Shown here: one piece after another, positions 15,669-64,000 of the stretch | How positions within the stretch are numbered: position 1 is the stretch's first letter | How the letters are laid out: the number at the start of each line of letters is the position of its first letter | Virus record (IMG/VR): IMGVR_UViG_3300017991_000003 | Location: 32,001-96,000 of that record | Source of the DNA: a virus | Strand: one strand, 5' to 3' | DNA length: 64,000 nt | Position numbers and translations under genes: made by a program | Notes under the pieces: model-generated | The model's input: the letters and a program-made list of their open reading frames with translations, nothing else | What the model was told of the DNA's origin: nothing | Database searches by the model: none

Positions 15669-17387
15669 TCAGATGATCGCGTTCCAGTCGACGATGACAC
15701 CGGCCTCGTCGAGCAAGTCGTAGAACCAGGTCACGACGTGGACGTAAGCACCTAGCGGGTCCTTGGGGTGGCGCTTCTGGGCCTCCTCGCGCTTGGCACC
15801 GAACTCGTCGGTCTTGGCCAGCTTGTGCTTCTTGCAGGTCTGGCCGAGCAGGCTGAGCAGGGCACGCTGCTGAGTGGAGTTGAGCTTCGAGTAGTCAGGG
15901 CGCACGTTCTCGTCGAACGGCTCCTCTTCTTCCTCTTCTTCCTCTTCCTCCTCCTCGCCAGGCTCCTCCTCGTCCTCCTCCTCAAGATCGTCGAGCTCCT
16001 CATCGCTGGGCTCTTCTTCGTCGAGGTCCTCCTCGTCGAGCTCCTCGTCTTCTTCCTCGTCAGGCTCCTCCTCGTCGAGGTCCTCGTCTTCTTCCTCCTC
16101 CTCGTCGAGGTCCTCCTCGTCGTCTAGCTCCTCCTCGAGCTCTTCTTCTTCGAGCTCCTCGAGCTCCTCGAGCTCCTCCTCTTCTTCCTCCACATCAGGG
16201 GCGGAGGCAGCAACCGGAGCCTCCCGCTTGCCGATCATGTCGTCAGGCGGGATAGGGGTGTGAAGAGGGCCGGAGACAGCGATAGGGAACGCGCGGATCG
16301 TGTCCTCGGGAACGCCGAGCGTATCCGCGGCCTCCGCGAGGCTGGTGGCCAGCACGTAGCGCAGCGTGTCGGAGCCGTCCTCGTCTTGGCTGTAGGCCTG
16401 GTACACGGCATGGACCGACGGGAGCCCGATATGCTCTTGCATGTAGTTGGGGTCACCATCGGGCGCGACGAAGACAGCGCTGACGCCCGGGCAGCAACGC
16501 TCAGCCGCTTCTTTGAGGCGCATCAGGCCCACGGCCCGCCACGCATCGTCAGCGCCTTCGGTCAGGTGCGAGGACGCGGCCACGAGGGCCTCGATCATCA
16601 CATCACCGTCGGTCGGCCAGCGGTCAGAGTCGTCAGTACCGGACGCGGCCCGCTTGAGCAGCTCCTGGTAGGAGTAGTAGAGGTCCAGCTGCGGCTGGGT
16701 GAGTCGGAGCTTGAGCTCGCGGTACTTGGCCTCGCCGGGCTCGAGCCCCTCGTCCTCCTCGTCGTTCATGTCCTGGATCGCCTGCTGCACCCGGCGCTTG
16801 AGGTCTGCGGAGCGCAGCGCGTGCGGGTGACCCAGGGGCTCGCAGAAGGGCAGCCACTCGGAGATGTTGTCCTCGTGGATAGCGCCGGCGCGGACGCCCG
16901 GGCTCAGCTCGACAAGCCGGTCCCAGACCACGTGGCGCAGGACGGCGGGGTTCAGGCTCAGCGACAGCAGCATGGCCCACTGGCCTGCTAGCTGGTTGGC
17001 CTTGGCCGGGTTCATGTTGAGCCGCATGTCCGCGACCTGCTCGAAGCTCTCGGCGGCCGGCAGATCACCGACAGGAGCCGCGACCTCGATCCACGCACCT
17101 TCTCGCAGGTTGAACAGGTGGCAGGCCAGCTCAGCAGTCTGAGCGCCTCGGGCCTGCTGGAGCTCGACACACCGGTCCAGACGCTTGATCGCCGGGAGCT
17201 TGCCGGTGCCGGCGAAGGGGGCTCGCTGCCCCTGTAGGAGGTTCTGGGTTGCGTACTCGGCGCGCTCTTGAGCCTCTTCGAGGGCCACCAGTGCGGCGTT
17301 CTCGGAGCCCGGCTGCGGTTGGGTAGTCGGCGCAGCAGCCGCTTTCTTCTTCGTGGCCTTCTTGGCGGCCTTCTTTTTCTTAGCCAT
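15669..17387 (-). CDS. Hypothetical protein with Lys-rich N-terminal tail and long polyacidic tract
   Basis: Start taken at MAKKKKAAKKATKKK (ATG 17385-17387); about 110 residues of nearly pure Glu/Asp/Leu. Confidence 0.65.
   Translation of the reverse strand: MAKKKKAAKKATKKKAAAAPTTQPQPGSENAALVALEEAQERAEYATQNLLQGQRAPFAGTGKLPAIKRLDRCVELQQARGAQTAELACHLFNLREGAWIEVAAPVGDLPAAESFEQVADMRLNMNPAKANQLAGQWAMLLSLSLNPAVLRHVVWDRLVELSPGVRAGAIHEDNISEWLPFCEPLGHPHALRSADLKRRVQQAIQDMNDEEDEGLEPGEAKYRELKLRLTQPQLDLYYSYQELLKRAASGTDDSDRWPTDGDVMIEALVAASSHLTEGADDAWRAVGLMRLKEAAERCCPGVSAVFVAPDGDPNYMQEHIGLPSVHAVYQAYSQDEDGSDTLRYVLATSLAEAADTLGVPEDTIRAFPIAVSGPLHTPIPPDDMIGKREAPVAASAPDVEEEEEELEELEELEEEELEEELDDEEDLDEEEEEDEDLDEEEPDEEEDEELDEEDLDEEEPSDEELDDLEEEDEEEPGEEEEEEEEEEEEPFDENVRPDYSKLNSTQQRALLSLLGQTCKKHKLAKTDEFGAKREEAQKRHPKDPLGAYVHVVTWFYDLLDEAGVIVDWNAII
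15921..16192. repeat. Low-complexity GAG/GAA/GAC codon tract encoding the polyacidic region
   Basis: Plus strand is CTC/TTC/GTC-rich with internal direct repeats. Confidence 0.8.
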
Positions 17388-18429
17388 GGGCGGGGGTCTT
17401 CTTCTTCTTGGTTCTTTTGTAGGGGAAGCAGTCAAGGCGGTTGCGGCATCGCTTGGCCTTGGCGGTGTTGCGGCTAGAGCAGGCCTTCGGGCCAGCTAGG
17501 GGCTGTCCAAGCTCTACGAGGCGATGGACAGAGTCGATGTAGGGGTCGACGACCATGGGCAGGAAGTCGGGGTCATAGGCGATCTCGTAGGCCCGGTCGG
17601 CAAGTCGGTCCCTGTCAAGATATAGCAACGAAGTGCCCTCACAGAGGTCAGGATCTAGCGGAAAGATTCCTTGACGCCCCTGCTCGACCAAGATGGCCGG
17701 GTAGAGCTTGCCTTGGTAGGTGTCCTTCTCCAGAGGGAGCGGGCCCTGCCGGGGCTTGAGCACGAAGGTTCCGGGCTCTTTGCCCCGGACGCGCGACATA
17801 CTGTCGAACTGGTCCCGCTCCTTGCTCTTCATCTCCAGCACTCGCCAGTGCCCGGTGGGCTTGATCCAGATACCGTCAGCACGGCCGCGGATCATCCACG
17901 CGTCACCGCGATTCTTGGGGTCGGGCCGACGAATGCGGATCTCCTCGTAGCGCCATCTGACACGCTCCCGGGCTAGGACCCGATCGCAGTTGTTCTCGTG
18001 GACTACCCCATCCGCATCACGGTAGGCGACGGTGTTGGTGCACACCTCCTCGGGCCTGAACCCTTCGACGACCTGGTGACAGCTCATACACCTCCACAGG
18101 CCCCAGAGGCGCCCGACGTCGCCTGTGATCTCAGGTAGGATCACGGACTGGAAGTGGTCATGAACAGCGTGCCCAGCTGCGAACAAGCGTAGCGCCTGGG
18201 GACTAAAGCCCTGAGCGTCGCCCCACATATCGTGGAGGCGCTTGAAAGCGTCTTGGACCATACACCCGTTGCAGAGGCTGCTTGGGTTGAAGGCTCTGGA
18301 GACATACCCCTCACGCTCTTCTCGACGGAGAAGCGCCTGGTCGATGGCCGGCGTCCAAGACTGATCGGCCTCGACCCTCGTCGTCATCTTGCAGATGAAG
18401 TCGACGATGTCTTGTGTGAAGGTGTTCAC
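17380..18429 (-). CDS. Putative PD-(D/E)xK-type nuclease-like protein with Cys clusters
   Basis: 349 aa; CNGC and CMSC pairs plus D...E-x-K-like RADGIWIK...VLEMKSK; weak assignment. Confidence 0.5.
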   Translation of the reverse strand: MNTFTQDIVDFICKMTTRVEADQSWTPAIDQALLRREEREGYVSRAFNPSSLCNGCMVQDAFKRLHDMWGDAQGFSPQALRLFAAGHAVHDHFQSVILPEITGDVGRLWGLWRCMSCHQVVEGFRPEEVCTNTVAYRDADGVVHENNCDRVLARERVRWRYEEIRIRRPDPKNRGDAWMIRGRADGIWIKPTGHWRVLEMKSKERDQFDSMSRVRGKEPGTFVLKPRQGPLPLEKDTYQGKLYPAILVEQGRQGIFPLDPDLCEGTSLLYLDRDRLADRAYEIAYDPDFLPMVVDPYIDSVHRLVELGQPLAGPKACSSRNTAKAKRCRNRLDCFPYKRTKKKKTPAHG

Positions 18430-19914: not shown

Positions 19915-21525
19915 TCACCCGTCCTCTTGTTCGAGGCCGGCCTCGAGCGCATCGAGGGGGTCACCTCCCTCTGCTTCTTCTGAATCTTCGGCAGCCCCAG
20001 CGGCTGGCTGATGTCCTTTGAGTCGGTCATGGGCTTCGTGAATGAGATCCTGGAGAGGGTCGTCGAAAGGCCCATAGAGATGGGCCTCTGCGTCGAGGTG
20101 GCCTCGGAAGGTCCGCGGCATGATTGCGGCAGCCAGCGGATAGCGCAGGCGATAACCGATGTCGGGCCGGCTCAGGAAGGCCTTGATGTCCGCGATCTTG
20201 GTGAAGGTGCGGCCGAGGATCTCATACCCCCGCGAGGTCTTCTTGAACCACCTGTCATCAGGCGGCAGCTCCCAAGCGCCCTCAGATAGGGCTTTCAGGA
20301 GCTCAAACACGCGCGCACCCTCGTCGGTCTCGCCGGCTTCGTAGTGGACACGGTCAAACAGACGATCCTTGAGGAACAGCCGAGCCTGGGCGCTAGCGTT
20401 GGTGCCGCCCCCGGACGCCTTGTCCTTCTTCATCGTCATCGTCATCTCCGCCATGGCGGCGGGCTCACGGTAGCCGCCGTCCCACGGGTTGTAGCGGGTG
20501 CGGATCTCCATGTTCTGCATGAGCGCGTACTTGAGGGCGTTACCGCCCGACGCGATCTTGGAGGGACCGCCGTAGCCCCCGGGGCCCGACTGGATGTTGG
20601 CGCGCCACTGGTTGGTCTGGATGAACGTGGGCATCACGCCCGACTGGTTCCAGGCCTCGTTTTGCGCGCTGATCAGCTTCGGGTACAGGCGGGACAGCTC
20701 ACGAGCCCGGGACGCGGTCTGCTTACGACCCGCCAGGTCCTCGTCAATCGCAGCCATGGCCACACTGTCGAGGATGATCAGATCGGCAGCGCCGTTCTTG
20801 ATCAGGTGGGAAGAGAGGATCTCGACCTGGTTCAAGGACGTGATGCGGGCCACAGCTACTGTCGAATCCGGGCTGATGAGTAGGCCCTCTTCGACCTCCT
20901 CGTACTCAGCCATCGGATCGCTCATGTCCACACGATCCGCGATCTTGAACCCCCAGGACTGTGCCCATAGCGGGTCGAAGTCACCCTCGACATCGATGAA
21001 GAGGACGGTCGACACATCGTTGGCACCGCAGCCGCAGCGGATCACGTTATCCCGCTCACCCAGGTCATCATGGAAGGTGAGGATCGGAGTCATGCAGCGC
21101 CGGCAAGTGCGCTGGAAGGAGCCGGCCAGTAGGTAGCACATGAGCGACTTGCCCACATGCTCCGGGCCAATGATCTGCGTCCGGGTGCCGATGGCCATGC
21201 GGATGTTCATGTCCATCTCGACCAGTCCCGTGAACAGGAGCCGGCGGCGGAACTCAGCTGCGGCCTGCGTCGCTCGCCAAGAACCCGTGGGCTGCTTGTT
21301 GAGCTCGACTGTCGCAGACTTCATCCCGTCGCTGAACCGAGCGCTGGTGCGTGTGTCGCGCGGGCTCTTCACTCCGGCCGTCAGCGCCCGCTTCGGAGCG
21401 TCGTCCTTGGCTGCGGCCTTCTTGGTCCGCTTCTTGGCCTTCTTCTTGGTCGCCTTCTTCTTGGTGGCCTTCTTGGTCACCTTCTTTGTGGCTTTTTTGG
21501 CGACCTTCTTCTTCTTGGCCGCCAT
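19915..21525 (-). CDS. RecA-like recombinase with Lys-rich N-terminal tail
   Basis: Walker A IIGPEHVGKS, Walker B LIILDSVAMA, GGNALKYA matching RecA GGNALKFYA; N-terminal AKKKKVAKKATKK tail. Confidence 0.6.
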   Translation of the reverse strand: MAAKKKKVAKKATKKVTKKATKKKATKKKAKKRTKKAAAKDDAPKRALTAGVKSPRDTRTSARFSDGMKSATVELNKQPTGSWRATQAAAEFRRRLLFTGLVEMDMNIRMAIGTRTQIIGPEHVGKSLMCYLLAGSFQRTCRRCMTPILTFHDDLGERDNVIRCGCGANDVSTVLFIDVEGDFDPLWAQSWGFKIADRVDMSDPMAEYEEVEEGLLISPDSTVAVARITSLNQVEILSSHLIKNGAADLIILDSVAMAAIDEDLAGRKQTASRARELSRLYPKLISAQNEAWNQSGVMPTFIQTNQWRANIQSGPGGYGGPSKIASGGNALKYALMQNMEIRTRYNPWDGGYREPAAMAEMTMTMKKDKASGGGTNASAQARLFLKDRLFDRVHYEAGETDEGARVFELLKALSEGAWELPPDDRWFKKTSRGYEILGRTFTKIADIKAFLSRPDIGYRLRYPLAAAIMPRTFRGHLDAEAHLYGPFDDPLQDLIHEAHDRLKGHQPAAGAAEDSEEAEGGDPLDALEAGLEQEDG

Positions 21526-41632: not shown

Positions 41633-44600
41633 ATGGCCGATAACGTCCAGCTCTACGACGCGCATCTAAACCTCTGGACCCTCAGGACATCCGAGGACAC
41701 AGAAATCCACACGCCGCACCACGTGTCGCGGCTGGCGGACGGGGAGGGGCGCTTCTACAGGCCCGGACGGCCGGTACCTGTGTCGATCTACGGGACGGAC
41801 GGGGTCGAGATCAACATCGAGGCCGGCTCGATCGCTGTCAGCACAGACCACAACGAGGACTCAGTAGCGGTCTTCGGGTCGTCGACCCCTGAGGGGCTGG
41901 AAAACTTCAGGTCGCTGGTGGTGGACCCCCAGGGGCACCTCCAGACCACAGTGGTCTCAGCGCCTGGGGTGGAGCCCGTCGGGGACTCGCCCGACGCGGG
42001 GCAGCTAGGTACGGTCATCCTAGGGGTCCAGGTAGGGGCAACGCCAGCTAGTCAGGTCACGGGGGACGGTCGGACAGCCCCTCTGATCATGGACGATCGG
42101 GGCCGGCTCTTCGTCTCTTTCGGCAACTCCGTCGCGGTTCTGCCCTTCACGCAAAAGGGTGACCTACTTACTTATGACGGATCTGACGAAGTTGTCCTGG
42201 GCCCGACGGTCGACGACGCGCTTCTGACACTGGACTCCAGTACCAGTACCGGCCTCAGGTGGGTGAGCCCGGTGACGAGCTCCCCCAGCCCCGTGCTCTT
42301 CCTACGCGAGGATCTAACATGGGCTCTGCCCTCAGCAGGGGCACCGGGCGGGGCTGCGGGCGGAGACTTGGGCGGGACCTATCCGAACCCGTCTGTGGTC
42401 GCTATCCAAGGGATTTCCACTTCTGCGGCTGCGCCAACGCCTGGGCAGACCTGGGTGTACACCGGCAGCGCTTGGAGTCCGGGAAGCCCGGCTACCGGAG
42501 CTGCTACGGACCACGGGACGCTCACAGGGCTCCTCGACGATGATCACACCCAGTACATCCTGGCTGATGGCTCTCGAGACTTCTCAGGCTCAATCGGCAT
42601 GGGTGGGAATGAGATCACGGATGTGGCCTCTCCTATCCTCGTATCCTGGGCAGCTAACAAGGGTTACGTTGATGATCAGATCACCGCGTCCGTCATCACG
42701 GACCACGGCGGGCTAGGCGGGCTCGGGGATGACGACCATACCCAGTACGTGTTGGTGGCTGGCACTCGTGCGTTCACGGGCGATCAGAGCCTAGGCGGTA
42801 ACAAGATCACGAGTCTGGGGTCCCCGACCACCGCAAGCGATGGAGCCAACAAAGGTTACGTCGACGCTAACGTGGTCACGGACCACGGCGCTTTGATCGG
42901 GCTGGGGGATGATGACCACACCCAGTACATCCTGACTGCGGGGACTCGAGCCTTCAGTGGTAACCAGAGCCTAGGCGGCAACCTGATCACAAGCCTAGGC
43001 TCGCCTACTACCGCAAGTGGTGGTGCTAACAAGGGTTACGTTGACGCGGCTATCACGTCGGCAGTGATCACGGATCACGGAGGGCTTGGCGGCCTGACGG
43101 ACGACGACCATACGCAGTACGTCCTGGTCGCAGGTACTCGAGCGTTCACAGGCAGCCAGAGCCTGGGCGGTAACCTGATCACGTCGCTAGGGTCTCCTAC
43201 TGTTGTAAGTGACGCAGCTAACAAAGGTTACGTTGATGCGCAGATCCCGACGAGCCTACCCCCTAGCGGGGCTGCTAGTGGTGATCTAGGCGGCACGTAC
43301 CCCGGGCCTACTGTGGTGGCCATTCAAGGCACCGGAGTCAGTGCAAACGCTCCAAGTACTGGTGATGGCCTGGTTTACACCGGAGCGGCTTGGAGTCCGA
43401 CCGCGGTCTATCGACCTGGCGGGACGGATGTGGCTGTGGCAGACGGGGGCACCGGGGCGTCGGACGCGTCCACGGCGCGTAGCAATCTAGGCCTGACCAT
43501 CGGGCTCGACGTCCAAGCCCACTCCGCAGTTCTTGACGCTACAACGGCCAGTTACACAACCGCGGCCGAGGGTAAGCTCTCGGGCATCGAGACCAACGCT
43601 GATGTCACGGACACAGCCAACGTGACGGCCGCTGGCGCTGTCATGATCGGCACAACGGCCGCGGCCGGGGACCTGAGCGGTACCTACCCGAGCCCGACGG
43701 TCGTGGCCATTCAGGGGACTGGCGTCTCGAGCACTGCGCCGAGCTCTGGGCAGGCCCTGATCTACTCCGGCACTGTCTGGAGCCCCAGCACGCTCCCCAG
43801 CGGGGTGACGGACCACGGGGCCCTGACCGGACTCGGAGACGACGACCATACCCAGTACATCCTGGTTGGTGGCACTCGCGCCTTCACGGGCAACCAGTCG
43901 ATGGGCGGCAACCTGCTCACGTCGTTGGGGAGCCCGGTGGCGGTAACAGACGCAGCTAACAAGGGTTACGTCAATGCCTCGATCACCGCGGCCGTCGTCA
44001 CGGACCACGGGGCCCTTGACGGGCTGGCCGATGACGACCACACCCAGTACCACAACGACGCTCGGGCGCTGACGTGGTTGGGGACGCGCGACACAGATGA
44101 CCTGGACCCGAGCGCCACCCGTCTCTACATGAGCCCGGGTGAGCGCACCAAGCTCGCCGGGATCGAAGCGCTTGCCGATGTGACCGATGCGGCCAACGTG
44201 GCCGCGGCCGGCGCTGTCATGGTCGGTGACGCTGCGGGCGGTGATCTTAGCGGTACCTACGCAAACCCGTCCGTGGTCGCGATCCAGGGTACGGGTTGCT
44301 CTTCAGCAACGCCGACCGCCGGCCAGACCTGGGTCTACTCCGGGTCCCAGTGGAGTCCTGGCTCACCCGCTGTTGGTGGCGCGTCAGATCACGGAACCCT
44401 GACCGGGCTGGGCGACGACGACCACACTCAGTACATTCTTGTTGACGGTACACGGGCCTTCACAGGCGCAGTTAGTCTCGGTGGGAGCCAGATCAACAGC
44501 CTGGCTTCGCCCACGCTCCCAGCAGATGCAGCCAACAAGGGCTACGTCGACGACCAGATCCCGACGAGTCTACCCCCTAGCGGGGCAGCGTCTGGCGACC

Positions 44601-45409
44601 TTGGTGGGACCTACCCGGGCCCAGACGTGGTGGCTATCCAGGGGACCGCGGTCAACTCGGCGACGCCGACGACGGGTGAGGCCCTGCTCTACTCGGGAAC
44701 GCAGTGGAGCCCTGGGCCGATCAACTTCCTCGAGCTCAACGACGTCGATCCCACAGGCCTGACCAACCTCGACCTGTTCTACTACAGCTCGGCGTCGGGG
44801 ACTATCGTCCGGTCTAGCGGCCTCACGACCTACGCGTTCTACACGCACAGCGGATCGCACATCCACGGACAGTACGACGCAATCGACGGGGATCAGCTAT
44901 CGATCACCCAGCCGGGCGTCAACTACTCCCCGACGACCGACGCGACATACGGCACCAACACGGCGCACCTCGCTGCCCATCTGCGGGGTATCGGTCTGGT
45001 CCTGGAGGATGTCAGTCCCGCGGTCACCAAGCTCGCCGGGATCGAGGCGGGCGCTGAAGCCAACGACGTTCAGACCAAGAGCATCACGATCGAGGCGCCG
45101 ACCACGACGGAAGACATCTCGTTCTTCTACGCTCCGGTAGCGATGACGATCTCAGAGATGGTCACGGTCCTGGTGGGCTCTCCTACGCCGTCCCTAGCGT
45201 GGACGCTCCGGCACAGCACCGACAGGAGCGCTGTGGGCAACGAGGTCATCACCGGGGGATCCACGGCGAATAGTACGACGACCGGTAACGTGCTGACCTC
45301 CTTCAACGACGCAACGGTCCCAGCCAACTCCTTCCTGTGGGTTGAAACGGCGAGCCCCAGCACGAACGTGACGAGCTTCCAGCTCAGCGTTGAGTACACC
45401 GACGACTGA
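41633..45409 (+). CDS. Tail fibre / receptor-binding protein with internal repeats
   Basis: 1258 aa; seven copies of a unit containing TDHGxLxGLxDDDHTQY...GANKGYVD and five copies of a second unit DLxGTYPxPxVVAIQGT; AGGGGAGGA ribosome-binding site before ATG. Confidence 0.7.
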   Translation: MADNVQLYDAHLNLWTLRTSEDTEIHTPHHVSRLADGEGRFYRPGRPVPVSIYGTDGVEINIEAGSIAVSTDHNEDSVAVFGSSTPEGLENFRSLVVDPQGHLQTTVVSAPGVEPVGDSPDAGQLGTVILGVQVGATPASQVTGDGRTAPLIMDDRGRLFVSFGNSVAVLPFTQKGDLLTYDGSDEVVLGPTVDDALLTLDSSTSTGLRWVSPVTSSPSPVLFLREDLTWALPSAGAPGGAAGGDLGGTYPNPSVVAIQGISTSAAAPTPGQTWVYTGSAWSPGSPATGAATDHGTLTGLLDDDHTQYILADGSRDFSGSIGMGGNEITDVASPILVSWAANKGYVDDQITASVITDHGGLGGLGDDDHTQYVLVAGTRAFTGDQSLGGNKITSLGSPTTASDGANKGYVDANVVTDHGALIGLGDDDHTQYILTAGTRAFSGNQSLGGNLITSLGSPTTASGGANKGYVDAAITSAVITDHGGLGGLTDDDHTQYVLVAGTRAFTGSQSLGGNLITSLGSPTVVSDAANKGYVDAQIPTSLPPSGAASGDLGGTYPGPTVVAIQGTGVSANAPSTGDGLVYTGAAWSPTAVYRPGGTDVAVADGGTGASDASTARSNLGLTIGLDVQAHSAVLDATTASYTTAAEGKLSGIETNADVTDTANVTAAGAVMIGTTAAAGDLSGTYPSPTVVAIQGTGVSSTAPSSGQALIYSGTVWSPSTLPSGVTDHGALTGLGDDDHTQYILVGGTRAFTGNQSMGGNLLTSLGSPVAVTDAANKGYVNASITAAVVTDHGALDGLADDDHTQYHNDARALTWLGTRDTDDLDPSATRLYMSPGERTKLAGIEALADVTDAANVAAAGAVMVGDAAGGDLSGTYANPSVVAIQGTGCSSATPTAGQTWVYSGSQWSPGSPAVGGASDHGTLTGLGDDDHTQYILVDGTRAFTGAVSLGGSQINSLASPTLPADAANKGYVDDQIPTSLPPSGAASGDLGGTYPGPDVVAIQGTAVNSATPTTGEALLYSGTQWSPGPINFLELNDVDPTGLTNLDLFYYSSASGTIVRSSGLTTYAFYTHSGSHIHGQYDAIDGDQLSITQPGVNYSPTTDATYGTNTAHLAAHLRGIGLVLEDVSPAVTKLAGIEAGAEANDVQTKSITIEAPTTTEDISFFYAPVAMTISEMVTVLVGSPTPSLAWTLRHSTDRSAVGNEVITGGSTANSTTTGNVLTSFNDATVPANSFLWVETASPSTNVTSFQLSVEYTDD
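42507..43250 (+). repeat. Four tandem in-frame copies of a ~186-bp (62-aa) repeat in the fibre gene
   Basis: DDDHTQY codon strings recur at about 42537, 42731, 42911 and 43101. Confidence 0.85.
43801..44560 (+). repeat. Three further copies of the same 62-aa repeat interleaved with AIQGT-motif units
   Basis: DDDHTQY codon strings at about 43845, 44033 and 44413. Confidence 0.8.
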
Positions 45410-56900: not shown

Positions 56901-57127
56901 TAAAAAGCTCCTTGGTGAATCAACCGGAGCAGAGCTCCGGAGGTGAAAGGTGCCCCACCCGCCGAGAGGCGAGTGGGGCGGTTGCCAGGATGCACACGAA
57001 CTACTGGAGTGGTGGACCTGAGCTGAGCCGGAGTATGGCACCGGATCGAGCCGGATTCAGTGACTGCGTATAGCTCGTTGGGTTTGTCTACCTCGTGGAT
57101 GAGCTCGGAGTCACGACTCGAGCGGAG

Positions 57128-57289
57128 TCGCCTGCCTCGAGCTCATTGTTGCCATCATCTCGTCTGGTTGATGAGATGGCGGCGGCTCCTCCTCTCCTGT
57201 TATCCTGCGCTTACAGTATTCTCGGTGCCCGAGCTCGACCCATCTCGTCAACCTGACGCGATGATGGCAACAATGAGCTCGAGGCAGGC
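57128..57289. repeat. 31-bp perfect inverted repeat pair separated by 100 nt
   Basis: 57128-57158 is the exact reverse complement of 57259-57289, verified base by base. Confidence 0.9.
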
Positions 57290-57438
57290 GCCGCAGCGAG
57301 AGGCGCCGTGGCTCAGCCTCGTGGTGGGCAAACCCACGAGTTATTCGCAGACACTGAAGCCGGCCCGGTTGACATGCTCTGGCTCAGCTCAGGGTCTACC
57401 CGTAGGTGCAAGTGTGGCCGAGGTTGCTGTTGCGCTAT

Positions 57439-57457
57439 CTGCGGCGATGCGCCGCAG
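57439..57457 (+). repeat. Hairpin motif copy 1 (CTGCGGCG-ATG-CGCCGCAG)
   Basis: 8-bp stem, 3-nt loop; shares core GGCGATGCGCCGC with two other copies. Confidence 0.8.
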
Positions 57458-57785
57458 GACCCTCAAGTCAAGAGGGAATAGCTCTTCGTGTGCGGGGATT
57501 CCAAGGCAAGAGCCTGGATGGGCGCGCAGAGCATGATCCCGGTCGTGGAGGCGTGCCCGAGCTTTGTACGCGACCCGGTTCGGGTCGAGGATAAAGCGAA
57601 GGACCAGCACGCTGTAACGATCCGTGGATTATGCTCCGCGCTGTCCCAGCCAGCGCTTCGTTGGTAGTGGGAGGCGCCTCCGCTAGGAGGCGACGTCCTC
57701 GAGTTGCGCTACTGAAGCGACCACACATGCTGGCATGTGTAGCTTCAGGTGCGCAGTGCTCGAGGCCCACGACCAGTCGTACAGT

Positions 57786-57802
57786 GGCGGCGATGCGCCG
57801 CC
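57786..57802 (+). repeat. Hairpin motif copy 2 (GGCGGCG-ATG-CGCCGCC)
   Basis: 7-bp stem, 3-nt loop; same core. Confidence 0.8.
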
Positions 57803-58040
57803 TGAAGACGTTGTGGATTAGGCCTCCGGTAGGCCCGTTCCAGTCTTTCTACTCCCTTGGAAAGGTAGTCACCTCTTGCGAGGCTGGCTGGCTACCTTGG
57901 TATCGGCGCTCGTAGAGACTACCCGGTCACACGCCCGCCGGAGGCGGGCTTGTGGACGCGTGGTCTCAACGTAATGTGTCACAGGAGACAGCTCGAGGCG
58001 CAGCTCGAGCGGGCCTCCGGCCACAGTTTCTATCACTTGA

Positions 58041-58053
58041 CGGCGATGCGCCG
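58041..58053 (+). repeat. Hairpin motif copy 3 (CGGCG-ATG-CGCCG)
   Basis: 5-bp stem, 3-nt loop; same core. Confidence 0.75.
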
Positions 58054-58265
58054 CCGCGGAAGTCAGATGGGCTAGCTAGACCACTTCTTTCCTTGCTCCG
58101 CCGAAGATGTACCTGTTGGCAGCCCTGGTACTGGGCTTTTGGCTATGAAGAACGGATCATCGGGGCCAACTACCCTCCTGCTCTTCGTGCCTGTTGGTAC
58201 CGGCCTTTGGCCGGCAGCCGAGCCTGCTCCGGATTATGTGGAGCAGACTCGGTTCACTTGGTGCG

Positions 58266-58733
58266 CTAGCCGCGCTCCTTGACGGGGACCTTCATGATGA
58301 GGACGTCGCCCTCCTTGAGGGTCATCCCGTCGGTCACCTCCTGGCCGCCGATGTGCGGCTTCGACCCCTCGGGGGTGCCGAAGCGGCGAGCGTACTCGGT
58401 CCGCGCGTCGGCGACCGAGGTGCCGGCGGCGACGTTGAGGCGGCCGGGCTCGCCCAGACCGTCGGTGGCCGCGGCGGTGACCGTGGCGACCGGACCCGCC
58501 TGCGGGGTCTCCTGGGTCGTCGGCGCCGTCGTGGCGGTGGGAGCGGTGCGCGTCACGGCGACGGCCACCTCGGTGTCCGTGGGCAGACCCGTGGTCTGGT
58601 CCCACTTGGTCGGATCCGAGTGGTCGACCTCGTAGAGCACGGGGTTGCCGGCCGCGTCGTTCGCGGGGGAGTCGGCGTAGCGGATGCGACGGTTGAGGGT
58701 GTCGAACGCGGGGCGCTTGATGTTTCCGGTCAT
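58266..58733 (-). CDS. Beta-grasp (ThiS/MoaD/ubiquitin-like) domain protein with N-terminal extension
   Basis: C-terminal ~60 aa (GRLNVAAGTSVADARTEYARRFG...TLKEGDVLIMKVPVKERG) matches the ThiS/MoaD pattern by eye; ends in a single Gly; no clear ribosome-binding site. Confidence 0.5.
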   Translation of the reverse strand: MTGNIKRPAFDTLNRRIRYADSPANDAAGNPVLYEVDHSDPTKWDQTTGLPTDTEVAVAVTRTAPTATTAPTTQETPQAGPVATVTAAATDGLGEPGRLNVAAGTSVADARTEYARRFGTPEGSKPHIGGQEVTDGMTLKEGDVLIMKVPVKERG

Positions 58734-59495: not shown

Positions 59496-61394
59496 TCAGG
59501 GGTAGATGGGGAGGGTGGCTTCTGTTTCGGACTTGTTGCAGAAGGCGATCTCCTCGAGGAGGACATCGTCTTCCATGTCGTCGGGGTCCTCGAGGACTCC
59601 GTCCATCTCGAGCACCAGTCGATCCATCTGATCGAGGATCTCTTGGTAGTCCTTGCGGTAGGGAATGCCGGCGTTCTGGGCCGCCTTGCGGACGACAAAG
59701 TAGGTCAGCCGGAACCACTCGAGCAGGACGCCGTCGGAGTCCTCTCGCGAGAATGCCTCGACGTAGCTCAGGTTGGTCTCGATCACGGTCTCGATCACGG
59801 TGTCGATCGACGTCTCGGGGAACACAGTTTTCACCGTCGGGTCGGCGTAGACGTATTTCGAGAGCTTGTCGATCCGGGCATCCAGTGCGATCGACTTGAA
59901 TAGCCGGTCGAGAAGGTCGTCGATGCGATTCATCACCTCGTCGATGACGTCTCGAACCAGCATGCTGTAGAGGGTCTGACGACTCTCGGATGCGCTGTTC
60001 TGCGCTTCTTCGACGATCTCTTCGATCGTGGGGGCGTTATCGAACCACTCACTGGTCGAGGCGTGGTTCATGAGCAGATGCAGGGCTAGGGCCGTAGCGT
60101 TGCTCGACGTCAGACTGTCCTTGAACGAGGTGCAGTACGCCCACACGGCTCGTGGGAAGGTCGTTTGCTGACCCTCCGCCTTCTTGATCAGCTGAAGGGG
60201 GTAGTGCGCTTGCGGTGAGATCACCATGCCGTAGAAGCCGGTGTGCATCCGCTGGATGCGGAACTTCTTATCAGCGACCAGCGAAGGGCCAGAGGCTGTC
60301 TTGCTGACAGGTACCAGTGAGGTAGTCGTCTTCTTCGTCGTCTGGCCAAGGCCACCCTGCGCCCCCGTACCCCCAGTCTTGCCGCCAGGAGTCGAAGGCG
60401 TACCCGCTTTGCCGCCGGTCCACTTTTTCGAGCCATAGCCGCCATACCTGCTGGTCTTGGCTTTCTTCTCCGCCTCCTTGATGGCCTCGCTGGCCAACTT
60501 GAACGTGGTAAGACAACGGGCGGCCTCGCCCATCCTGTCCTTCCAACGCCCCAGGCTTTCCATCGACCCACAGAAGGTCATCACAGTGCTCGTGTCGACG
60601 TCCTCGAGCTTGTCGACGCTGAGACCGACGGCGAGCTCGTCGGGATCGACCCCGGCCTTCAGCATGGCTTCGCACAGTCCGGGGTGGGCGACCCGGTTCA
60701 GCCACAGCTGAATCAGATCCAGGCCGCCCTCCACGAAAGGGATGTCGAACAACTCCTCGAGACCGGTCGCGTGGCGGATGCCCTGCGCCTTCTCGTTGCG
60801 GTAGCCGGGGAGGGCGGTGACGAACGACGGGCACACCGAGAAGGGCGGCTTGTCCACGTTCCCGAAGGTGATGTGGAAGCCCGTCTGGTTGAGCTCGTTG
60901 GCGTCGTCGGTCGAGCTGTGGTAGGCTCCACCAGCGCCGTGACTGTGCGCGGTGCCGACGCAGATGAACTCGACAAGCTCTCCATCCTCGCAGATGGGGC
61001 AAGCGTTGCCGGCTTCGAGCTCGATCGAGCCGATGCGACAGGTCGTGCAGAAGCTCTTGACGTTGGGATCGTACTTCACGTGCCCCGCGGAGGCGGTGTA
61101 CCACGGCGGACTGACGAGGGTGTAGGCGTCGTCGACCGGCCCTCGGTGGAAGAGCACGAAGGCCTCGGTCTTCCACAGGCGGTAGACCTCGGCGAAGTAG
61201 CGGTAGACGAACATCGTCTCCGCCATGGAGATCTTGGGCCAGTTGGTGAGGTCCAGGTCACGCTGGATCTGGTCGGTTTCACCGAGGTCCTCGGCCCGGG
61301 CGGGAACGAAGGCCTGAGCCCAGGCGGCCCCGCCTGGGCCGATGGTCTTCAGCACGTGGGCTTGGTTGCCCTTGTAGTAGATGTCGGTGGTCAT
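59496..61394 (-). CDS. JAB/JAMM metallopeptidase-domain protein with zinc ribbon and large C-terminal domain
   Basis: Exact JAMM signature HSHGAGGAYHSSTDD preceded by CTTC...CPIC; GC3-rich codons checked across the gene; start at internal Met giving ATGA overlap with upstream gene. Confidence 0.7.
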   Translation of the reverse strand: MTTDIYYKGNQAHVLKTIGPGGAAWAQAFVPARAEDLGETDQIQRDLDLTNWPKISMAETMFVYRYFAEVYRLWKTEAFVLFHRGPVDDAYTLVSPPWYTASAGHVKYDPNVKSFCTTCRIGSIELEAGNACPICEDGELVEFICVGTAHSHGAGGAYHSSTDDANELNQTGFHITFGNVDKPPFSVCPSFVTALPGYRNEKAQGIRHATGLEELFDIPFVEGGLDLIQLWLNRVAHPGLCEAMLKAGVDPDELAVGLSVDKLEDVDTSTVMTFCGSMESLGRWKDRMGEAARCLTTFKLASEAIKEAEKKAKTSRYGGYGSKKWTGGKAGTPSTPGGKTGGTGAQGGLGQTTKKTTTSLVPVSKTASGPSLVADKKFRIQRMHTGFYGMVISPQAHYPLQLIKKAEGQQTTFPRAVWAYCTSFKDSLTSSNATALALHLLMNHASTSEWFDNAPTIEEIVEEAQNSASESRQTLYSMLVRDVIDEVMNRIDDLLDRLFKSIALDARIDKLSKYVYADPTVKTVFPETSIDTVIETVIETNLSYVEAFSREDSDGVLLEWFRLTYFVVRKAAQNAGIPYRKDYQEILDQMDRLVLEMDGVLEDPDDMEDDVLLEEIAFCNKSETEATLPIYP

Positions 61395-61816: not shown

Positions 61817-62655
61817 CGGACCACCTCTCGCCACTTCTCGGCCGCCGTACCGAGCTCCCGGCCCAGTACGATCTCATCGACGTCCGTCTGCCAGGTCATG
61901 ATGCGATCCTCGGTCCAGCGCTGCCATCGACAGAACTGCCAGAGCATGACAGTGTTCATGTTCAGGCCCAGATCACGCCGCCTGTCGTAGTCGGTGTAGT
62001 CACCTTCGGGGAGTTGCTCGAAGTACGGGACCTCTCGAAGCGCTTCGGGAACCTCAAACCCCTCAGGGAGCGGCCCGCTGAAAGGTGGCATGGTCAGGGA
62101 GTGCTCGTAGTGCGCGTTGTAGCCGGACTCGTTGATGAGCTTGAGGACCATCTCCGGGATCGACTGGAGCCCGTTGTACCGGTACTGGCGGAACACAGCA
62201 CCCGTGCACATGCCTCCCGTATCTTGCTGGTTCGGTAGGAATGATTTGTACAGAACCGGGGTGTACCCCGCCTCCAGATGCGGCTGCTGCTTGGTGAAGA
62301 AGCAGCGGGCATCGGAGAGGCGCCCGTCGTAGATCGAGATGATGAAGACGCGCGCAGGCATGGCGACCAGGAATCGAAGACCCTCCGGCCAGCCGCGGTT
62401 CTCGCGGACGTCGATGGAGATCCTCTCAGCCCGCGGAGGCACGACTGCCATGAAGTGCTCGTTGTGGGCATCCTTGGTGTGTGCCAGGATGTTTACGTAG
62501 GGGTGGTACGGAAAGAGGGCGCCAGCGCGCCGGCCTCGTTCCTCGAGGGCGGTCACGACGTCTTCTTCCCGCGTGATGCGGTTGACGTGAACCGTTTGAT
62601 GGATCACGTGACCATCGACGATGACGAGTCGATCGTGGGTTTCGAAGTTGGTCAT
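61813..62655 (-). CDS. Hypothetical protein (operon member, candidate effector)
   Basis: 280 aa; ATGA overlap with the RT stop at 62652-62655. Confidence 0.6.
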   Translation of the reverse strand: MTNFETHDRLVIVDGHVIHQTVHVNRITREEDVVTALEERGRRAGALFPYHPYVNILAHTKDAHNEHFMAVVPPRAERISIDVRENRGWPEGLRFLVAMPARVFIISIYDGRLSDARCFFTKQQPHLEAGYTPVLYKSFLPNQQDTGGMCTGAVFRQYRYNGLQSIPEMVLKLINESGYNAHYEHSLTMPPFSGPLPEGFEVPEALREVPYFEQLPEGDYTDYDRRRDLGLNMNTVMLWQFCRWQRWTEDRIMTWQTDVDEIVLGRELGTAAEKWREVVR

Positions 62656-63755
62656 GGGAGGTACGCGCGTGTCTCGGCGCTGTAGTTGGTGGGGGTGTTG
62701 TGGTGCACGTCTTGCGCGACACGCAGTTGTAGTTGGAGCGAGGCTCCTTGATCAGGGTTGATGAAGTTGACGTGGTTGACGAGGCCGGCGAGGTGGTCAA
62801 AGTTCACCGGCACAGGGCCTCGGTGCGTCAGCTCTCCCCCACGGGGACAGCGGCCGAAGTGCGCGTCGCAGATGATCTTGTGCAGCCGGGCGCGAAGCGC
62901 GCGCCGTCGAGGCCTGGGAGCGCTTAGCTTCTCGTTGACGACGACGCCGCAGACCGTCATGCGACTGCCGATGGAGCGGAATCGGATCTTTTCGGGGGCG
63001 ACCTTGTAGCCCAGCTTTTTCAGGAACCCGATGACGGGGTACTGGAACTGGTACAGCTTTCTGTAATCCGCCGTGAAGGTCATGTCGTCGCTATAGCGGG
63101 TGTACGCGATCGGCAGGAGTCTGATCTGAGTCTGCGTCTTTCGCCGGCGCTCTCCGTGGTTGTCGACCCACCGCATCGTGGGGTTGGTCCGCCAGGACTC
63201 GATCAGCTTCAGGATGCCGAAGTCCACCTGAGCCCCTGCCAGGTTGGAGAGGAAGGGGGACGTGGGGGCTCCTTGTGGTAGGCCACCATCCAAGAAGCAG
63301 GCGCGTTTGACTCTGTCAAGGAAGAGCCTGTCGGCACGTGACATCGGTTGCATGTACCCCCTGGTCAGGAAGTACTCCAGCTGCTCGAGGACGACGTGGG
63401 GAGACACGGACGGGAAGAAGTCCCGCAGATCGATGTCCAGCTTGTACCGGTGACCTACATGCGGGGCGGCGTTGGTGTGGATACCACGCTTGCGGACGTA
63501 GGCATGAGCTGCTGGGGAGGCCCCGATCCCGAGCGCTTTGAGCTCGCTGAGGATGAGCTTTTGAGCAGCCATTAGCTCCGGGCAAGGGATCTGGAGCTTT
63601 CGCATCTTCTGACGTGTCCGACCGTTCGAAAGCGTCTCGAGTACCGGGACTTCTCGACCATCCCGGGTACGCCTGGTCTTGGGGATTCGTGCGAATCGGT
63701 AGTGCTCAGCTTGAGCGGTGTCCGTCAGGACATTGAATGATGGGTAGCCAGCCAT
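62652..63755 (-). CDS. Reverse transcriptase, retron-type
   Basis: TNAAPH (NAxxH), YKLDIDLRDFFPSV, GLPQGAPTSPFLSNL (QGxxxSP), YTRYSDDMTF (YxDD), RMTVCGVVVN (VTG-like); GAGGG ribosome-binding site 6 nt before ATG. Confidence 0.8.
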   Translation of the reverse strand: MAGYPSFNVLTDTAQAEHYRFARIPKTRRTRDGREVPVLETLSNGRTRQKMRKLQIPCPELMAAQKLILSELKALGIGASPAAHAYVRKRGIHTNAAPHVGHRYKLDIDLRDFFPSVSPHVVLEQLEYFLTRGYMQPMSRADRLFLDRVKRACFLDGGLPQGAPTSPFLSNLAGAQVDFGILKLIESWRTNPTMRWVDNHGERRRKTQTQIRLLPIAYTRYSDDMTFTADYRKLYQFQYPVIGFLKKLGYKVAPEKIRFRSIGSRMTVCGVVVNEKLSAPRPRRRALRARLHKIICDAHFGRCPRGGELTHRGPVPVNFDHLAGLVNHVNFINPDQGASLQLQLRVAQDVHHNTPTNYSAETRAYLP

Positions 63756-63814
63756 GATCTACCCTCAGATGACGGCGCAGATTGCGCTCAAGGCAAGAAG
63801 TAGCATGTGCTTCA

Positions 63815-64000
63815 CTCCGTGGTTTGAGGAAGTAGCGGGAGGTCCGCCTGGTGAAAGGCCTGGAAGATCGCCGAGGCGACGGTCTTCAGACGGCTTTCGA
63901 AGATCAGGTGGTCCGGGTGAGACATCTCCCCAGCGGGCGGGAGCTCTTTGAACAGCCGGTCGATGATGGCTACGAGCAGGTCGTTAGCGTCGGCCTGGCT
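63815..64000 (-). CDS. Hypothetical protein, 5-prime part outside window
   Basis: Reverse-complement frame open from the window edge to TGA at 63815-63817 (...LPQTTE*); GC3-rich codons. Confidence 0.5.

Follow-up and report, generated by a model that had tools for sequence, protein, structure and literature searches.

The window analysed here, a stretch of 64,000 nucleotides, belongs to the 174,660-bp contig k141_2423138 (ENA ERZ27256773) of a large uncultured phage, and the analysis was computational throughout. An operon runs along its minus strand, which is the sense strand in what follows, and codes in order for a small membrane-like protein, a 13-codon micro-ORF, a reverse transcriptase (RT), an E2-like protein, a 141-aa protein, a JAB peptidase, a ThiF/E1 enzyme and a ubiquitin-like protein (Ubl), its 3' end being a non-coding tail of 1.36 kb (Table 1). 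The locus is termed L001, and loci of other phages are numbered likewise. The RT, JAB and ThiF genes are linked in 15 lineages, rearrangements notwithstanding, and the synteny of the operon is kept among deeply diverged phages; GenBank phages gave neither a nucleotide match nor a homologue of the JAB protein. A TG(G/T)CAT(A/G)AG motif, which looks like a phage promoter, is found ahead of the operon in every locus; two further copies lie elsewhere in the window, and no copy adjoins the RNA unit described below.

Table 1. Position of the genes, predicted RNA elements and repeats (window coordinates unless another locus is named)
Feature	Position	Strand	Remarks
First operon gene, 3' part	63812..64000	-	Full gene L001 9342-9944, 200 aa, continues beyond the window
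Micro-ORF, 13 codons, MLLLALSAICAVI-stop	63765..63806	-	Conserved; relatives MLLFALSAICAVI, MLLLALSALYAVI, MLLLAISALCAVI; synonymous changes
Retron-type RT, 367 aa	62652..63755	-	ATG start; Pfam, PADLOC and NCBIfam profiles plus motifs
Putative E2 (UBC)-like protein, 280 aa	61813..62655	-	Start overlaps RT stop by 4 nt
Conserved protein, 141 aa	61391..61816	-	Same position in L005-L012
JAB/JAMM-domain protein, 632 aa	59496..61394	-	Prok-JAB match; H-S-H-x7-S-x-x-D motif
ThiF/E1-like adenylating enzyme, 244 aa	58757..59491	-	Pfam ThiF; GAGGIG nucleotide loop
Ubiquitin-like protein, 155 aa	58266..58733	-	N-terminal extension of ~80 aa, C-terminal module of ~75 aa
Gene-free, densely structured region	56901..58265		No called gene; operon 3' end
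Extra structured modules	57501..58055	-	Upstream of the ncRNA unit
SH1	58039-58055	-	Copy of SH hairpin within tail
SH2	57786-57802	-	Copy of SH hairpin within tail
Hairpin of ~160 nt, plus hairpins of ~60-65 nt	57501-57664 (~160-nt hairpin)	-	Tail, upstream of the ncRNA unit
a1 arm GCACACGAA	57485..57493	-	9-nt perfect complement of a2
Candidate priming (branching) G	57484	-	Directly after a1; faces G57001
First msr-type hairpin CCCTC-TTGACTT-GAGGG	57460..57476	-	Equivalents of different sequence in L004, L007, L010
Second msr-type hairpin, SH3, CTGCGGCG-CAT-CGCCGCAG, then ATAG	57439..57457	-	Covariation, wobble pairs
msd-type giant imperfect hairpin, 405 nt	57001..57405	-	MFE -243 kcal/mol, z = -14.5; unique in window
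a2 arm TTCGTGTGC	56992..57000	-	Directly after giant hairpin
Compact unit of L021	7777-7955 (L021)		Starts at RT stop codon; z = -7.8
Compact unit of L016	10810-10980 (L016)		z = -7.2

The initial annotation had described the RT as carrying the hallmarks of the retron family, and this description is borne out. Retron RTs are defined by an NAXXH motif in region X and a VTG motif in region Y, the H and the G being the most conserved residues, together with an intact YxDD (PMC7736814). The enzyme has N95-A-A-P-H99 (NAAPH), V268-C-G270 (VCG; some relatives have the exact VTG) and Y221-S-D-D224 (YSDD), and residues A96, H99, Y221, D223, D224 and G270 are invariant in 12 relatives with 34-52% identity. 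It matches Pfam RVT_1 at 4.4e-14; the best 25 PADLOC matches listed for it are retron RT models without exception, the top ones scoring 130-150 bits and RT_III-A, XIII and Ec107-like about 140-150 bits (146 bits for RT_XIII), and the NCBIfam retron models stay below their strict equivalog cut-offs (132 bits vs 235 for retron_St85_RT). The profile of the RT family finds the Ec86 RT at 4e-43, followed by Kva2, Ec83, Ec67 and Ec78, the five together spanning 1e-43 to 1e-31, while group II intron RTs reach 1e-11 and Drt2 1e-6, and all of the closest solved structures are validated retron RTs. By these motifs and scores the protein is assigned to the retron clade. A diversity-generating retroelement (DGR) was rejected because the window contains no template/variable repeat pair, its direct repeats of at least 40 nt being confined to repeats within a tail-fibre gene and to coding runs of low complexity. 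A group II intron (group_II_RT_mat, 40 bits vs a cut-off of 300; no intron match in Rfam) and a DRT (Drt2, 21 bits vs 390) were rejected as well.

The genes that follow the RT resemble the components of a ubiquitin-like conjugation pathway. The E2-like protein carries a PN..C motif, and a full HMMER scan returned just four relatives; word-index searches yielded no more than one relative besides the protein itself. The JAB protein matches Pfam Prok-JAB at 2.9e-5 with 24.3 bits, against a cut-off of 25, with weak JAB matches in its orthologues, and possesses an extra C-terminal region of 400 aa. The ThiF protein is recognized by Pfam ThiF (9.2e-14, 51.6 bits vs a cut-off of 28.1) and by the E1-E2 models of PADLOC. 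In the Ubl a C-terminal K-x-R-G is invariant, the glycine being terminal in five of eight lineages and followed by one or two residues in the other three; the orthologues in L011 and L012 have only 74-78 aa. PDB sequence searches gave no match for the 280-aa family, the ThiF protein or the JAB protein. The PRTRC cassette was rejected as an identity of these genes, PRTRC_ThiF (54.6 bits vs 144.75) and PRTRC_A (a weak match to the JAB protein, 19.5 vs 101.8) being below their cut-offs and other PRTRC matches being absent; a ParB-like protein was not found among the few genes examined. The 141-aa protein had no family match in Pfam, PADLOC and NCBIfam profile searches. None of the PADLOC retron-effector models matched the neighbours of the RT, and the set of partners is outside the 13 retron types of Mestre et al. 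2020 (PMC7736814). Because their linkage to the RT persists across distant phages, the Ubl, E1, E2 and JAB proteins are most likely the partner (effector) module of the RT.

On the other side of the RT, the upstream reading frame leaves the window, as had been noted, and on the source contig it is a 200-aa gene with its stop codon at 63812-63814. L004, L006 and L007 have conserved versions of its protein, in which a hydrophobic LLLPAMGLGALAALSLYHRL segment is found, and L009-L012 have unrelated small membrane-like ORFs in its place. The gap between the two genes is short, as annotated; its reported 59 nt correspond to a spacer of 56 nt (63756-63811) plus the stop codon of the upstream gene. 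The GAGGG ribosome-binding site was located 7-11 nt ahead of the ATG of the RT. The initial annotation had held the spacer to be too small for a canonical msr-msd, and folding against shuffles agrees, with no excess of structure (z = +0.13). The GCGCA-ATC-TGCGC hairpin that it had pointed out is indeed present, at chance level; it lies inside the conserved micro-ORF, is broken in L006, and was rejected as a template. Beyond position 64000, where an msr-msd just upstream of the 200-aa gene would have made this an ordinary retron, the source contig has an intergenic region of 135 nt that is less structured than its shuffles (z = +1.67) and holds only the promoter-like motif. Since this region, like the spacer, contains no msr-msd, the canonical architecture is not found there either.

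The template RNA, if any, had been expected either upstream beyond 64000 or in some unconventional form, for instance within the hairpin-dense region at the end of the operon. The upstream option fails, and a predicted RNA with the layout of a retron ncRNA, as defined by Mestre et al. 2020 (PMC7736814), was found within that region; what is unconventional is its position at the operon 3' end and the length of its msd, the layout itself being canonical. The density of hairpins is real and no gene is called among them, the equivalent gap being gene-free in eight other loci (0.6-1.6 kb). The region holds the sole very long inverted repeat of the window. The a1 and a2 arms were found by an exact-complement search, since RNAduplex over-extended the pairing; 28 of 5000 shuffles gave an equally good pair in L001, and the combined p over five loci is 3.5e-6. 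The SH hairpins recur with similar spacing in L007 (three copies) and L014 (three or four), and all 12 of their copies in the different loci pair completely (100%), although 15 cells have changed on both sides, which none of 500 shuffles matched. The extra SH modules and the other hairpins of the tail are beyond what a single unit explains. The covariance-model search for retron ncRNAs that had been proposed was run with Rfam, and no known family was found at the template region: nothing reached the gathering thresholds in the whole window, and at E <= 10 the 10 kb around the operon gave only chance matches of microRNA type. A scan of the tail found neither a sigma-70 promoter consensus on either strand nor an intrinsic terminator consensus, and since none is seen beside the unit we assume that the tail would be transcribed together with the operon.

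The same retron-like layout is present, in unrelated sequence, in eight other phage lineages (L004, L006, L007, L010, L012, L014, L016 and L021), downstream of the homologous operon, the loci of L016 and L021 being rearranged. Giant hairpins of unrelated sequence occupy the same position in L004 (418 nt), L007 (452 nt), L010 (518 nt) and L014 (431 nt), and in these four loci as in L001 (5/5) the closing helix has a common geometry, in which a1 precedes the hairpin by 60-90 nt and a2 directly adjoins it. L006 and L012 have shorter versions of the unit, and the rearranged loci have compact units of 170-180 nt. Opposing guanines at the inner end of a1/a2 are found in eight of the nine lineages (L001, L006, L007, L010, L012, L014, L016 and L021) and are absent in L004. 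No confident fit to the layout was obtained in L009 and L011, and L015, L017 and L029 showed no comparable structure. In L009 and L010 the equivalent gene-free region contains tRNA genes on the sense strand. A strict automated scan for the layout picked up the units of L010 and L016 but no others, besides two background matches, and was therefore excluded from the evidence; the pairs L004-L005 and L007-L008 are too alike for covariation analysis.

The two kinds of hairpin differ in the strand on which they pair best. In retrons the msr acts as RNA and the msd as cDNA, and therefore a split of wobble pairs between the sense and antisense strands is predicted. The SH hairpins have 10 G.T and no A.C wobble pairs on the sense strand, the giant hairpins have 69 G.U pairs on the antisense strand vs 13 on the sense strand, and the antisense strand is the more stable one in nine of nine msd-like hairpins. 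Hence, the short hairpins are optimised as sense RNA and the long hairpin as the complementary cDNA strand. The local plus strand is rich in G and T, and part of the wobble asymmetry could come from mutation bias; such a bias would probably not explain a ratio of 5:1, nor why the sign is reversed in the SH hairpins. GC skew, used as an origin test, was uninformative and gave no origin signal.

We favour, with a probability of roughly 0.6, a phage retron-type system with an unusual order of its parts, in which the segment 56992-57493 of the minus strand would be the cognate msr-msd RNA of the RT. By analogy with the retrons that have been studied, the RT would bind the short hairpins at the msr position, prime from the 2'-OH of G57484 and copy the long hairpin starting at the a2 side. 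Such 2'-5' priming and msDNA synthesis would yield a branched RNA-DNA molecule whose DNA part, a hairpin of ~400 nt, has the sequence of the plus strand of the window. Known natural msd lengths are about 48-163 nt; an msd of ~400 nt is far above them and would call for a different processivity and a different termination.

The gene-free region could alternatively be an independent phage element, such as an origin of replication, a signal for single-strand initiation or clustered small RNAs and tRNAs, the template of the RT being elsewhere or not existing at all. It is closely followed by replication-type genes (in related loci an HTH_36 protein, DnaB and RNR), tRNA genes are found within it in two lineages, the repeated palindromic SH motifs might be protein-binding sites on duplex DNA, and single-strand origins are likewise long, strand-specific hairpins. 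We hold this explanation to be improbable, because the combination of a1/a2, two hairpins, a long hairpin and opposing guanines is specific of retrons and occurs in nine lineages, and in the rearranged locus of L021 the unit comes directly after the stop codon of the RT. Moreover, wobble pairs restricted to the sense strand in the SH hairpins are not expected of sites on duplex DNA, and the skew analysis does not point to an origin. The preference of the giant hairpin for the antisense strand, in its stability and in most of its G.U pairs, would also suit an antisense double-stranded RNA made from the plus strand, a substrate of RNase III, a decoy or a regulator of the neighbouring genes, instead of an RT template. 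This is less probable still: the hairpin of L010 is only ~30 nt from the next gene on the sense strand, which therefore leaves no space for an antisense promoter outside coding sequence; the short hairpins give the opposite strand signal; the tRNA genes of the region are on the sense strand; and a sigma-70-like promoter was found on neither strand. On the antisense strand the elements do not follow one another as in a retron, and therefore the a1/a2 arms and their opposing guanines are left without explanation.

The RT might also be a mere remnant, decaying or selfish, or belong to a DGR or a group II intron, and have no retron RNA dedicated to it. This reading would accord with the frequency of retron-type RTs as prophage passengers and with the lack of Rfam matches. 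It is, however, very hard to reconcile with the invariance of catalytic and retron-specific residues in relatives as divergent as those above, with a synteny conserved across deeply diverged phages, and with the repeat search and the intron and Drt2 scores already given, and we give it hardly any weight.

The msr-msd reading leads to a wider and more tentative proposal, which as a whole we consider rather unlikely, namely that reverse transcription and Ubl conjugation are mechanistically coupled in a module that belongs to the core of a widespread large-phage lineage. A hairpin msDNA of ~400-500 nt would be made from a template at the operon 3' end, and the RNA-DNA-RT complex would control, scaffold or be the target of the phage E1, E2, JAB and Ubl proteins, the phage thereby countering host immunity or excluding rivals, as opposed to defending the host. 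Counter-defence and the exclusion of competitors are guesses at what the system would do for the phage. If the predictions are correct, the template of a retron need neither adjoin nor precede its RT, and natural retron ssDNA may be several times longer than the msDNAs described, which would be relevant to retron genome editing, where the length and yield of the donor are limiting. A complete Ubl conjugation kit would then be a new retron effector module, joining two separate fields. In the survey of Mestre et al. 2020 the ncRNA was not found in 3 of 11 RT clades (PMC7736814), and some of these could be re-examined at the ends of their operons.

Among lytic large phages, the MarsHill-like jumbo phages of Staphylococcus are the nearest parallel, with a retron-like RT of 501 aa that has an extra N-terminal domain, and, adjoining it upstream, a non-coding region of ~1.2 kb that was proposed as a possible ncRNA site (bioRxiv 10.1101/2020.12.14.422802). 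Ubl, E1, E2 and JAB genes were not reported there, and the structure of the RNA was not defined. The RT of a related Staphylococcus phage is a weak tblastn match to the present one (27.7% identity).

The conjugation genes resemble the four-part set of the Bil system (BilABCD) and of the PRTRC cassette (TIGR03735/TIGR03736), with a Ubl that ends in Gly, a ThiF-type E1, a putative E2-like protein with PN..C and a probable JAB protein with a JAMM motif; they differ from these systems in the C-terminal region of the JAB protein and the ~80-aa extension of the Ubl. To our knowledge neither an RT nor a structured ncRNA has been described for Bil or PRTRC, and in the literature searched no relevant case turned up of a retron or RT associated with ThiF, JAB or Ubl. 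Type XIII retrons (Mx162, Mx65, Sa163) share the long imperfect msd hairpin; theirs are the longest natural msDNAs known, about 65-163 nt, whereas at least 400 nt are predicted here. Their partners are SWIM/HEAT-repeat proteins and their ncRNA is upstream of the RT, in contrast to the Ubl conjugation enzymes and the downstream ncRNA of the present locus.

With canonical retrons (Retron-Eco1/Ec86, Sen2/St85, Eco7/Ec78) the locus has in common the RT clade with its NAXXH, V-x-G and YxDD motifs, the a1/a2 arms, opposing guanines, one to three short msr hairpins and one long msd hairpin of the ncRNA, the location of this RNA on the strand of the RT, and accessory genes within the operon. Their ncRNA, however, is contiguous with the RT and upstream of it, while the one predicted here is 5.2 kb downstream with five genes between, and its msd hairpin of 405 nt (418-518 nt in sister lineages) is unlike theirs. 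Finally, canonical retrons reside in bacterial defence islands, whereas this module is part of the syntenic core of a large phage; if the prediction holds, its conserved place in large phages of lytic type would argue that retrons can be of use to phages as well as to bacterial hosts.

The initial annotation called the reverse transcriptase (RT) retron-type, and this ORF is present, with retron RT models and hallmark residues both in agreement. Besides a Pfam RVT_1 match (4.4e-14), the best 25 PADLOC hits shown were all retron RT models, with RT_III-A (149.8 bits), RT_XIII (146.5), Ec107-like (139.5) and RT_X (139.2) scoring highest. Among NCBIfam models, retron_St85_RT reached 132 bits, short of its equivalog cut-off (235); the models for group II intron RT and Drt2 gave 40 and 21 bits. 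A profile built from the window RT and 11 relatives was run against solved structures; validated retron RTs ranked first (Ec86, at 4e-43, Kva2, Ec83, Ec67 and Ec78), with group II intron RTs at 1e-11 and Drt2 at 1e-6. The retron RT hallmarks defined in Mestre et al. 2020 (PMC7736814) are found as N95-A-A-P-H99 (NAXXH) and V268-C-G270 (V-x-G), together with the catalytic Y221-S-D-D224, and A96, H99, G270, Y221, D223 and D224 are invariant across 12 relatives (34-52% identity). Judged by its sequence, the enzyme is of the retron clade, with its catalytic and retron-specific residues intact. The exact protein also occurs on a metagenome contig of 174,660 bp (ENA ERZ27256773) and an IMG/VR viral contig.

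Sequence past window position 64000 was read from L001, the locus on the metagenome contig (window coordinate = 73756 minus L001 coordinate). The RT had been described as preceded by a 59-nt spacer; the gap is indeed short, but those 59 nt include the stop codon of the upstream gene, so the spacer proper measures 56 nt. Three sister lineages keep the 200-aa product of that gene as protein, so the ORF is a true gene rather than a mis-called RNA. In the 56-nt spacer there was no folding excess over shuffled sequence (z = +0.13), and structure in the next intergenic region upstream, 135 nt between divergent genes, was below that of shuffles (z = +1.67). Neither region contains an msr-msd, and no ncRNA contiguous with and upstream of the RT was found; the earlier claim that none lies just upstream stands, the contrary finding named with it being absent. 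Such an absence alone is unremarkable, since an ncRNA could not be found for 3 of the 11 RT clades in Mestre 2020 (PMC7736814). The small spacer hairpin was rejected as a template: it lies within the codons of a micro-ORF and is broken in the related locus L006. Relatives carry synonymous differences in this micro-ORF, or other mini-ORFs at that place (L010 and L012), and it may encode a leader or translational-coupling peptide.

The sole feature of the 135-nt region is the motif TG(G/T)CAT(A/G)AG. All related loci have it ahead of the operon, and the window contains two further copies. This pattern fits a phage promoter, probably of a phage-specific class. A fuller form is TG(G/T)CAT(A/G)AG-N6-8-TG, as in ACATGGCATGAGTCCTGTGAGCC; in L011 and L012 the motif is repeated just before ThiF. 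About 9 kb away lies a gene whose product faintly matches sigma-70 region 3. Upstream of the operon motif, AT-richer relatives have tandem AAAATAGGCC/TATTTTAGGCC-type repeats, absent in the window's lineage, which look like iterons or regulator-binding sites.

The alternative offered at the outset, a template within the gene-free tail 56901-58265, proved well placed: a retron-layout RNA lies there, at 56992-57493. Nested inverted repeats of the tail form one imperfect 405-nt hairpin, with nothing comparable among inverted repeats elsewhere in the 64 kb. Hairpins of unrelated sequence occupy the same place in L004 (418 nt), L007 (452), L010 (518) and L014 (431). In all five loci, L001 included, an exact complement of 7-11 nt closes the unit, its 5' segment 60-90 nt before the giant hairpin (operon sense) and its 3' segment adjoining the hairpin end. 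Among 5000 shuffles of the upstream 150 nt, 2 to 692 per locus matched the closing helix, for a combined p of 3.5e-6 in which the consistent geometry is not counted. MFE folds of whole units retain this helix and put two short hairpins in the stretch leading from it to the giant hairpin. All 12 instances of the second (SH, core GGCG-NNN-CGCC) are 100% paired, and 15 cells show changes on both sides, a covariation equalled by 0 of 500 shuffles. Where the closing helix ends on its inner side, a 5' G opposes a 3' G in L001 (G57484/G57001), L007, L010 and L014; L006 and L012, whose units are shorter, show this too, and L004 is the exception. The msr-msd transcript described by Mestre 2020 (PMC7736814) is bounded by inverted repeats and contains short msr hairpins (one to three), one long msd stem-loop and a pair of opposing G, and the layout of 56992-57493 matches it. 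Compact units of ordinary retron size occur in the distant, rearranged loci L021, starting at the RT stop codon, and L016, in a gene-poor stretch downstream of the operon. In nine lineages the 3' end of the RT operon carries an RNA of retron layout on the sense strand. That the window unit is the cognate template of the RT is the favoured reading, with a probability of roughly 0.6.

Coordinates of features in the window and in related loci (window positions unless a locus is named)
Feature	Position	Strand	Details
RT ORF	62652-63755	minus	367 aa
Micro-ORF	63765-63806	minus	conserved, 13 codons, MLLLALSAICAVI; between 200-aa gene and RT
Stop codon of 200-aa gene	63812-63814		upstream ORF
Giant hairpin	57001-57405 (L001 16351-16755)		MFE -243 kcal/mol, z = -14.5
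Closing arm	57485-57493		GCACACGAA
Closing arm	56992-57000		TTCGTGTGC
Extra GGCGGCG-CAT-CGCCGCC hairpins	58039-58055, 57786-57802	minus	
Hairpin	57501-57664	minus	~160 nt
Compact unit	L021 7777-7955	operon sense	a1 AACTTATTG, G/G, two short hairpins, ~100-nt hairpin, z = -7.8
Compact unit	L016 10810-10980	operon sense	a1 ACCTTGAACC, G/G, z = -7.2
TG(G/T)CAT(A/G)AG sites	36471, 23256	minus	
TG(G/T)CAT(A/G)AG site	L001 9275		outside window
AAAATAGGCC/TATTTTAGGCC-type repeats	L009 9411-9778; L010 9377-9633		intergenic
tRNA genes	L009 15796-15949; L010 15087-15160	operon	tRNA-Ala, tRNA-Gly
Ubl	58266-58733	minus	
JAB protein	59496-61394	minus	632 aa
Tail-fibre-like ORF	41633-45409	plus	1258 aa; repeats at 42350-44650
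Low-complexity coding runs	15909-16202, 21376-21516	minus	ORFs 15669-17435, 19915-21525

The two parts of the unit differ in the strand that carries wobble pairs. A strand-symmetric search of the gene-free regions for SH-type hairpins returned 10 with G.T on the operon-sense strand and 0 with A.C, the signature of wobble on the opposite strand; selection on the SH hairpins is therefore for the sense-strand RNA. Giant hairpins contained 69 G.U pairs folded as the antisense strand versus 13 as the sense strand, and the antisense strand was the more stable in 9 of 9 msd-like hairpins. This split fits the retron prediction, in which the msr acts as RNA and the msd hairpin matters as complementary DNA. 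Part of the asymmetry may come from mutation bias, the window plus strand being rich in G and T here, but such a bias is unlikely to have produced opposite signs in adjacent SH and giant hairpins. Sense transcription is also indicated by the tRNA genes on the operon strand of the homologous region in L009 and L010; the window has no tRNA genes, and no consensus promoter or terminator was found for the tail. With the unit as cognate template, and by the model of well-studied retrons, the RT would bind the short hairpins, prime at the 2'-OH of G57484 and copy the 405-nt hairpin from the a2 closing arm, to give a branched msDNA some 400 nt long. Each extra GGCGGCG-CAT-CGCCGCC copy has another hairpin before it and a 60-65-nt hairpin after it, and SH copies recur in L007 (three, similarly spaced) and L014 (three or four). 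The modules at 57501-58055 may be further template units, or sites bound by the RT.

The window comes from a large tailed phage, with a family A DNA polymerase, UvsX-like recombinase, helicase and tail fibre, and no close relative exists among 50,697 GenBank phage records. RT relatives (33-52% identity) lie on contigs of 66-183 kb and have their genes in the same order. A small variable gene comes first, followed by the RT, proteins of ~270 and ~140 aa, JAB (~600 aa) and ThiF (~245 aa), then a 74-159-aa protein, a 0.6-1.6-kb gene-free stretch and replication genes. The order is rearranged in the more distant L016, L021 and L029, with the RT near ThiF in all three and near JAB in L016 and L021. 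The linkage of the RT to the E1, JAB, E2-like protein and ubiquitin-like protein (Ubl) is a lasting one. The Ubl, the last small protein, has a ~75-aa C-terminal module with an invariant K-x-R-G end. Gly is the very last residue in five lineages, and one or two more residues follow it in three; as a sequence pattern, this is a ubiquitin-like modifier signature. A conserved 80-aa N-terminal extension (YADSP...DHSDP.KWDQ.TG) precedes it in the window, and the L011 and L012 orthologues, of 74-78 aa, are without it. The JAB domain, which carries HxHx7SxxD, spans only about residues 150-220 of its protein; no family was detectable for the Gly/Lys/Thr-rich linker and ~250-aa C-terminal region. With this Ubl signature, ThiF and the JAB motif, the operon would encode a full ubiquitin-like conjugation kit. 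Elsewhere in the window, the tail-fibre-like protein has internal repeat families of 59-215 nt; considered as a DGR template/variable pair, they proved to be protein repeats. Of two low-complexity coding runs, one is acidic and Glu/Asp-rich and the other, Lys-rich (KKxK), lies at the N-terminus of the UvsX-like recombinase.

The RT and RNA behaved as a retron in the membership tests that could be run; neither a contiguous upstream ncRNA nor an effector of a known retron type was found. Type XIII retrons, whose msDNAs are long (about 163 nt), are one of the nearest precedents. For the conjugation genes the near precedent is the Bil and PRTRC ubiquitin-like operons; we know of no RT in either, and no link of ThiF, JAB or Ubl to a retron or RT came up in an incomplete coverage of the literature. 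The MarsHill-type Staphylococcus jumbo phages are also near, having a retron-like RT that adjoins a 1.2-kb non-coding region, of content undefined there (bioRxiv 10.1101/2020.12.14.422802). Relative to these systems, four features are new: the position of the RNA, the msd length, the partner genes and the setting in the phage core.
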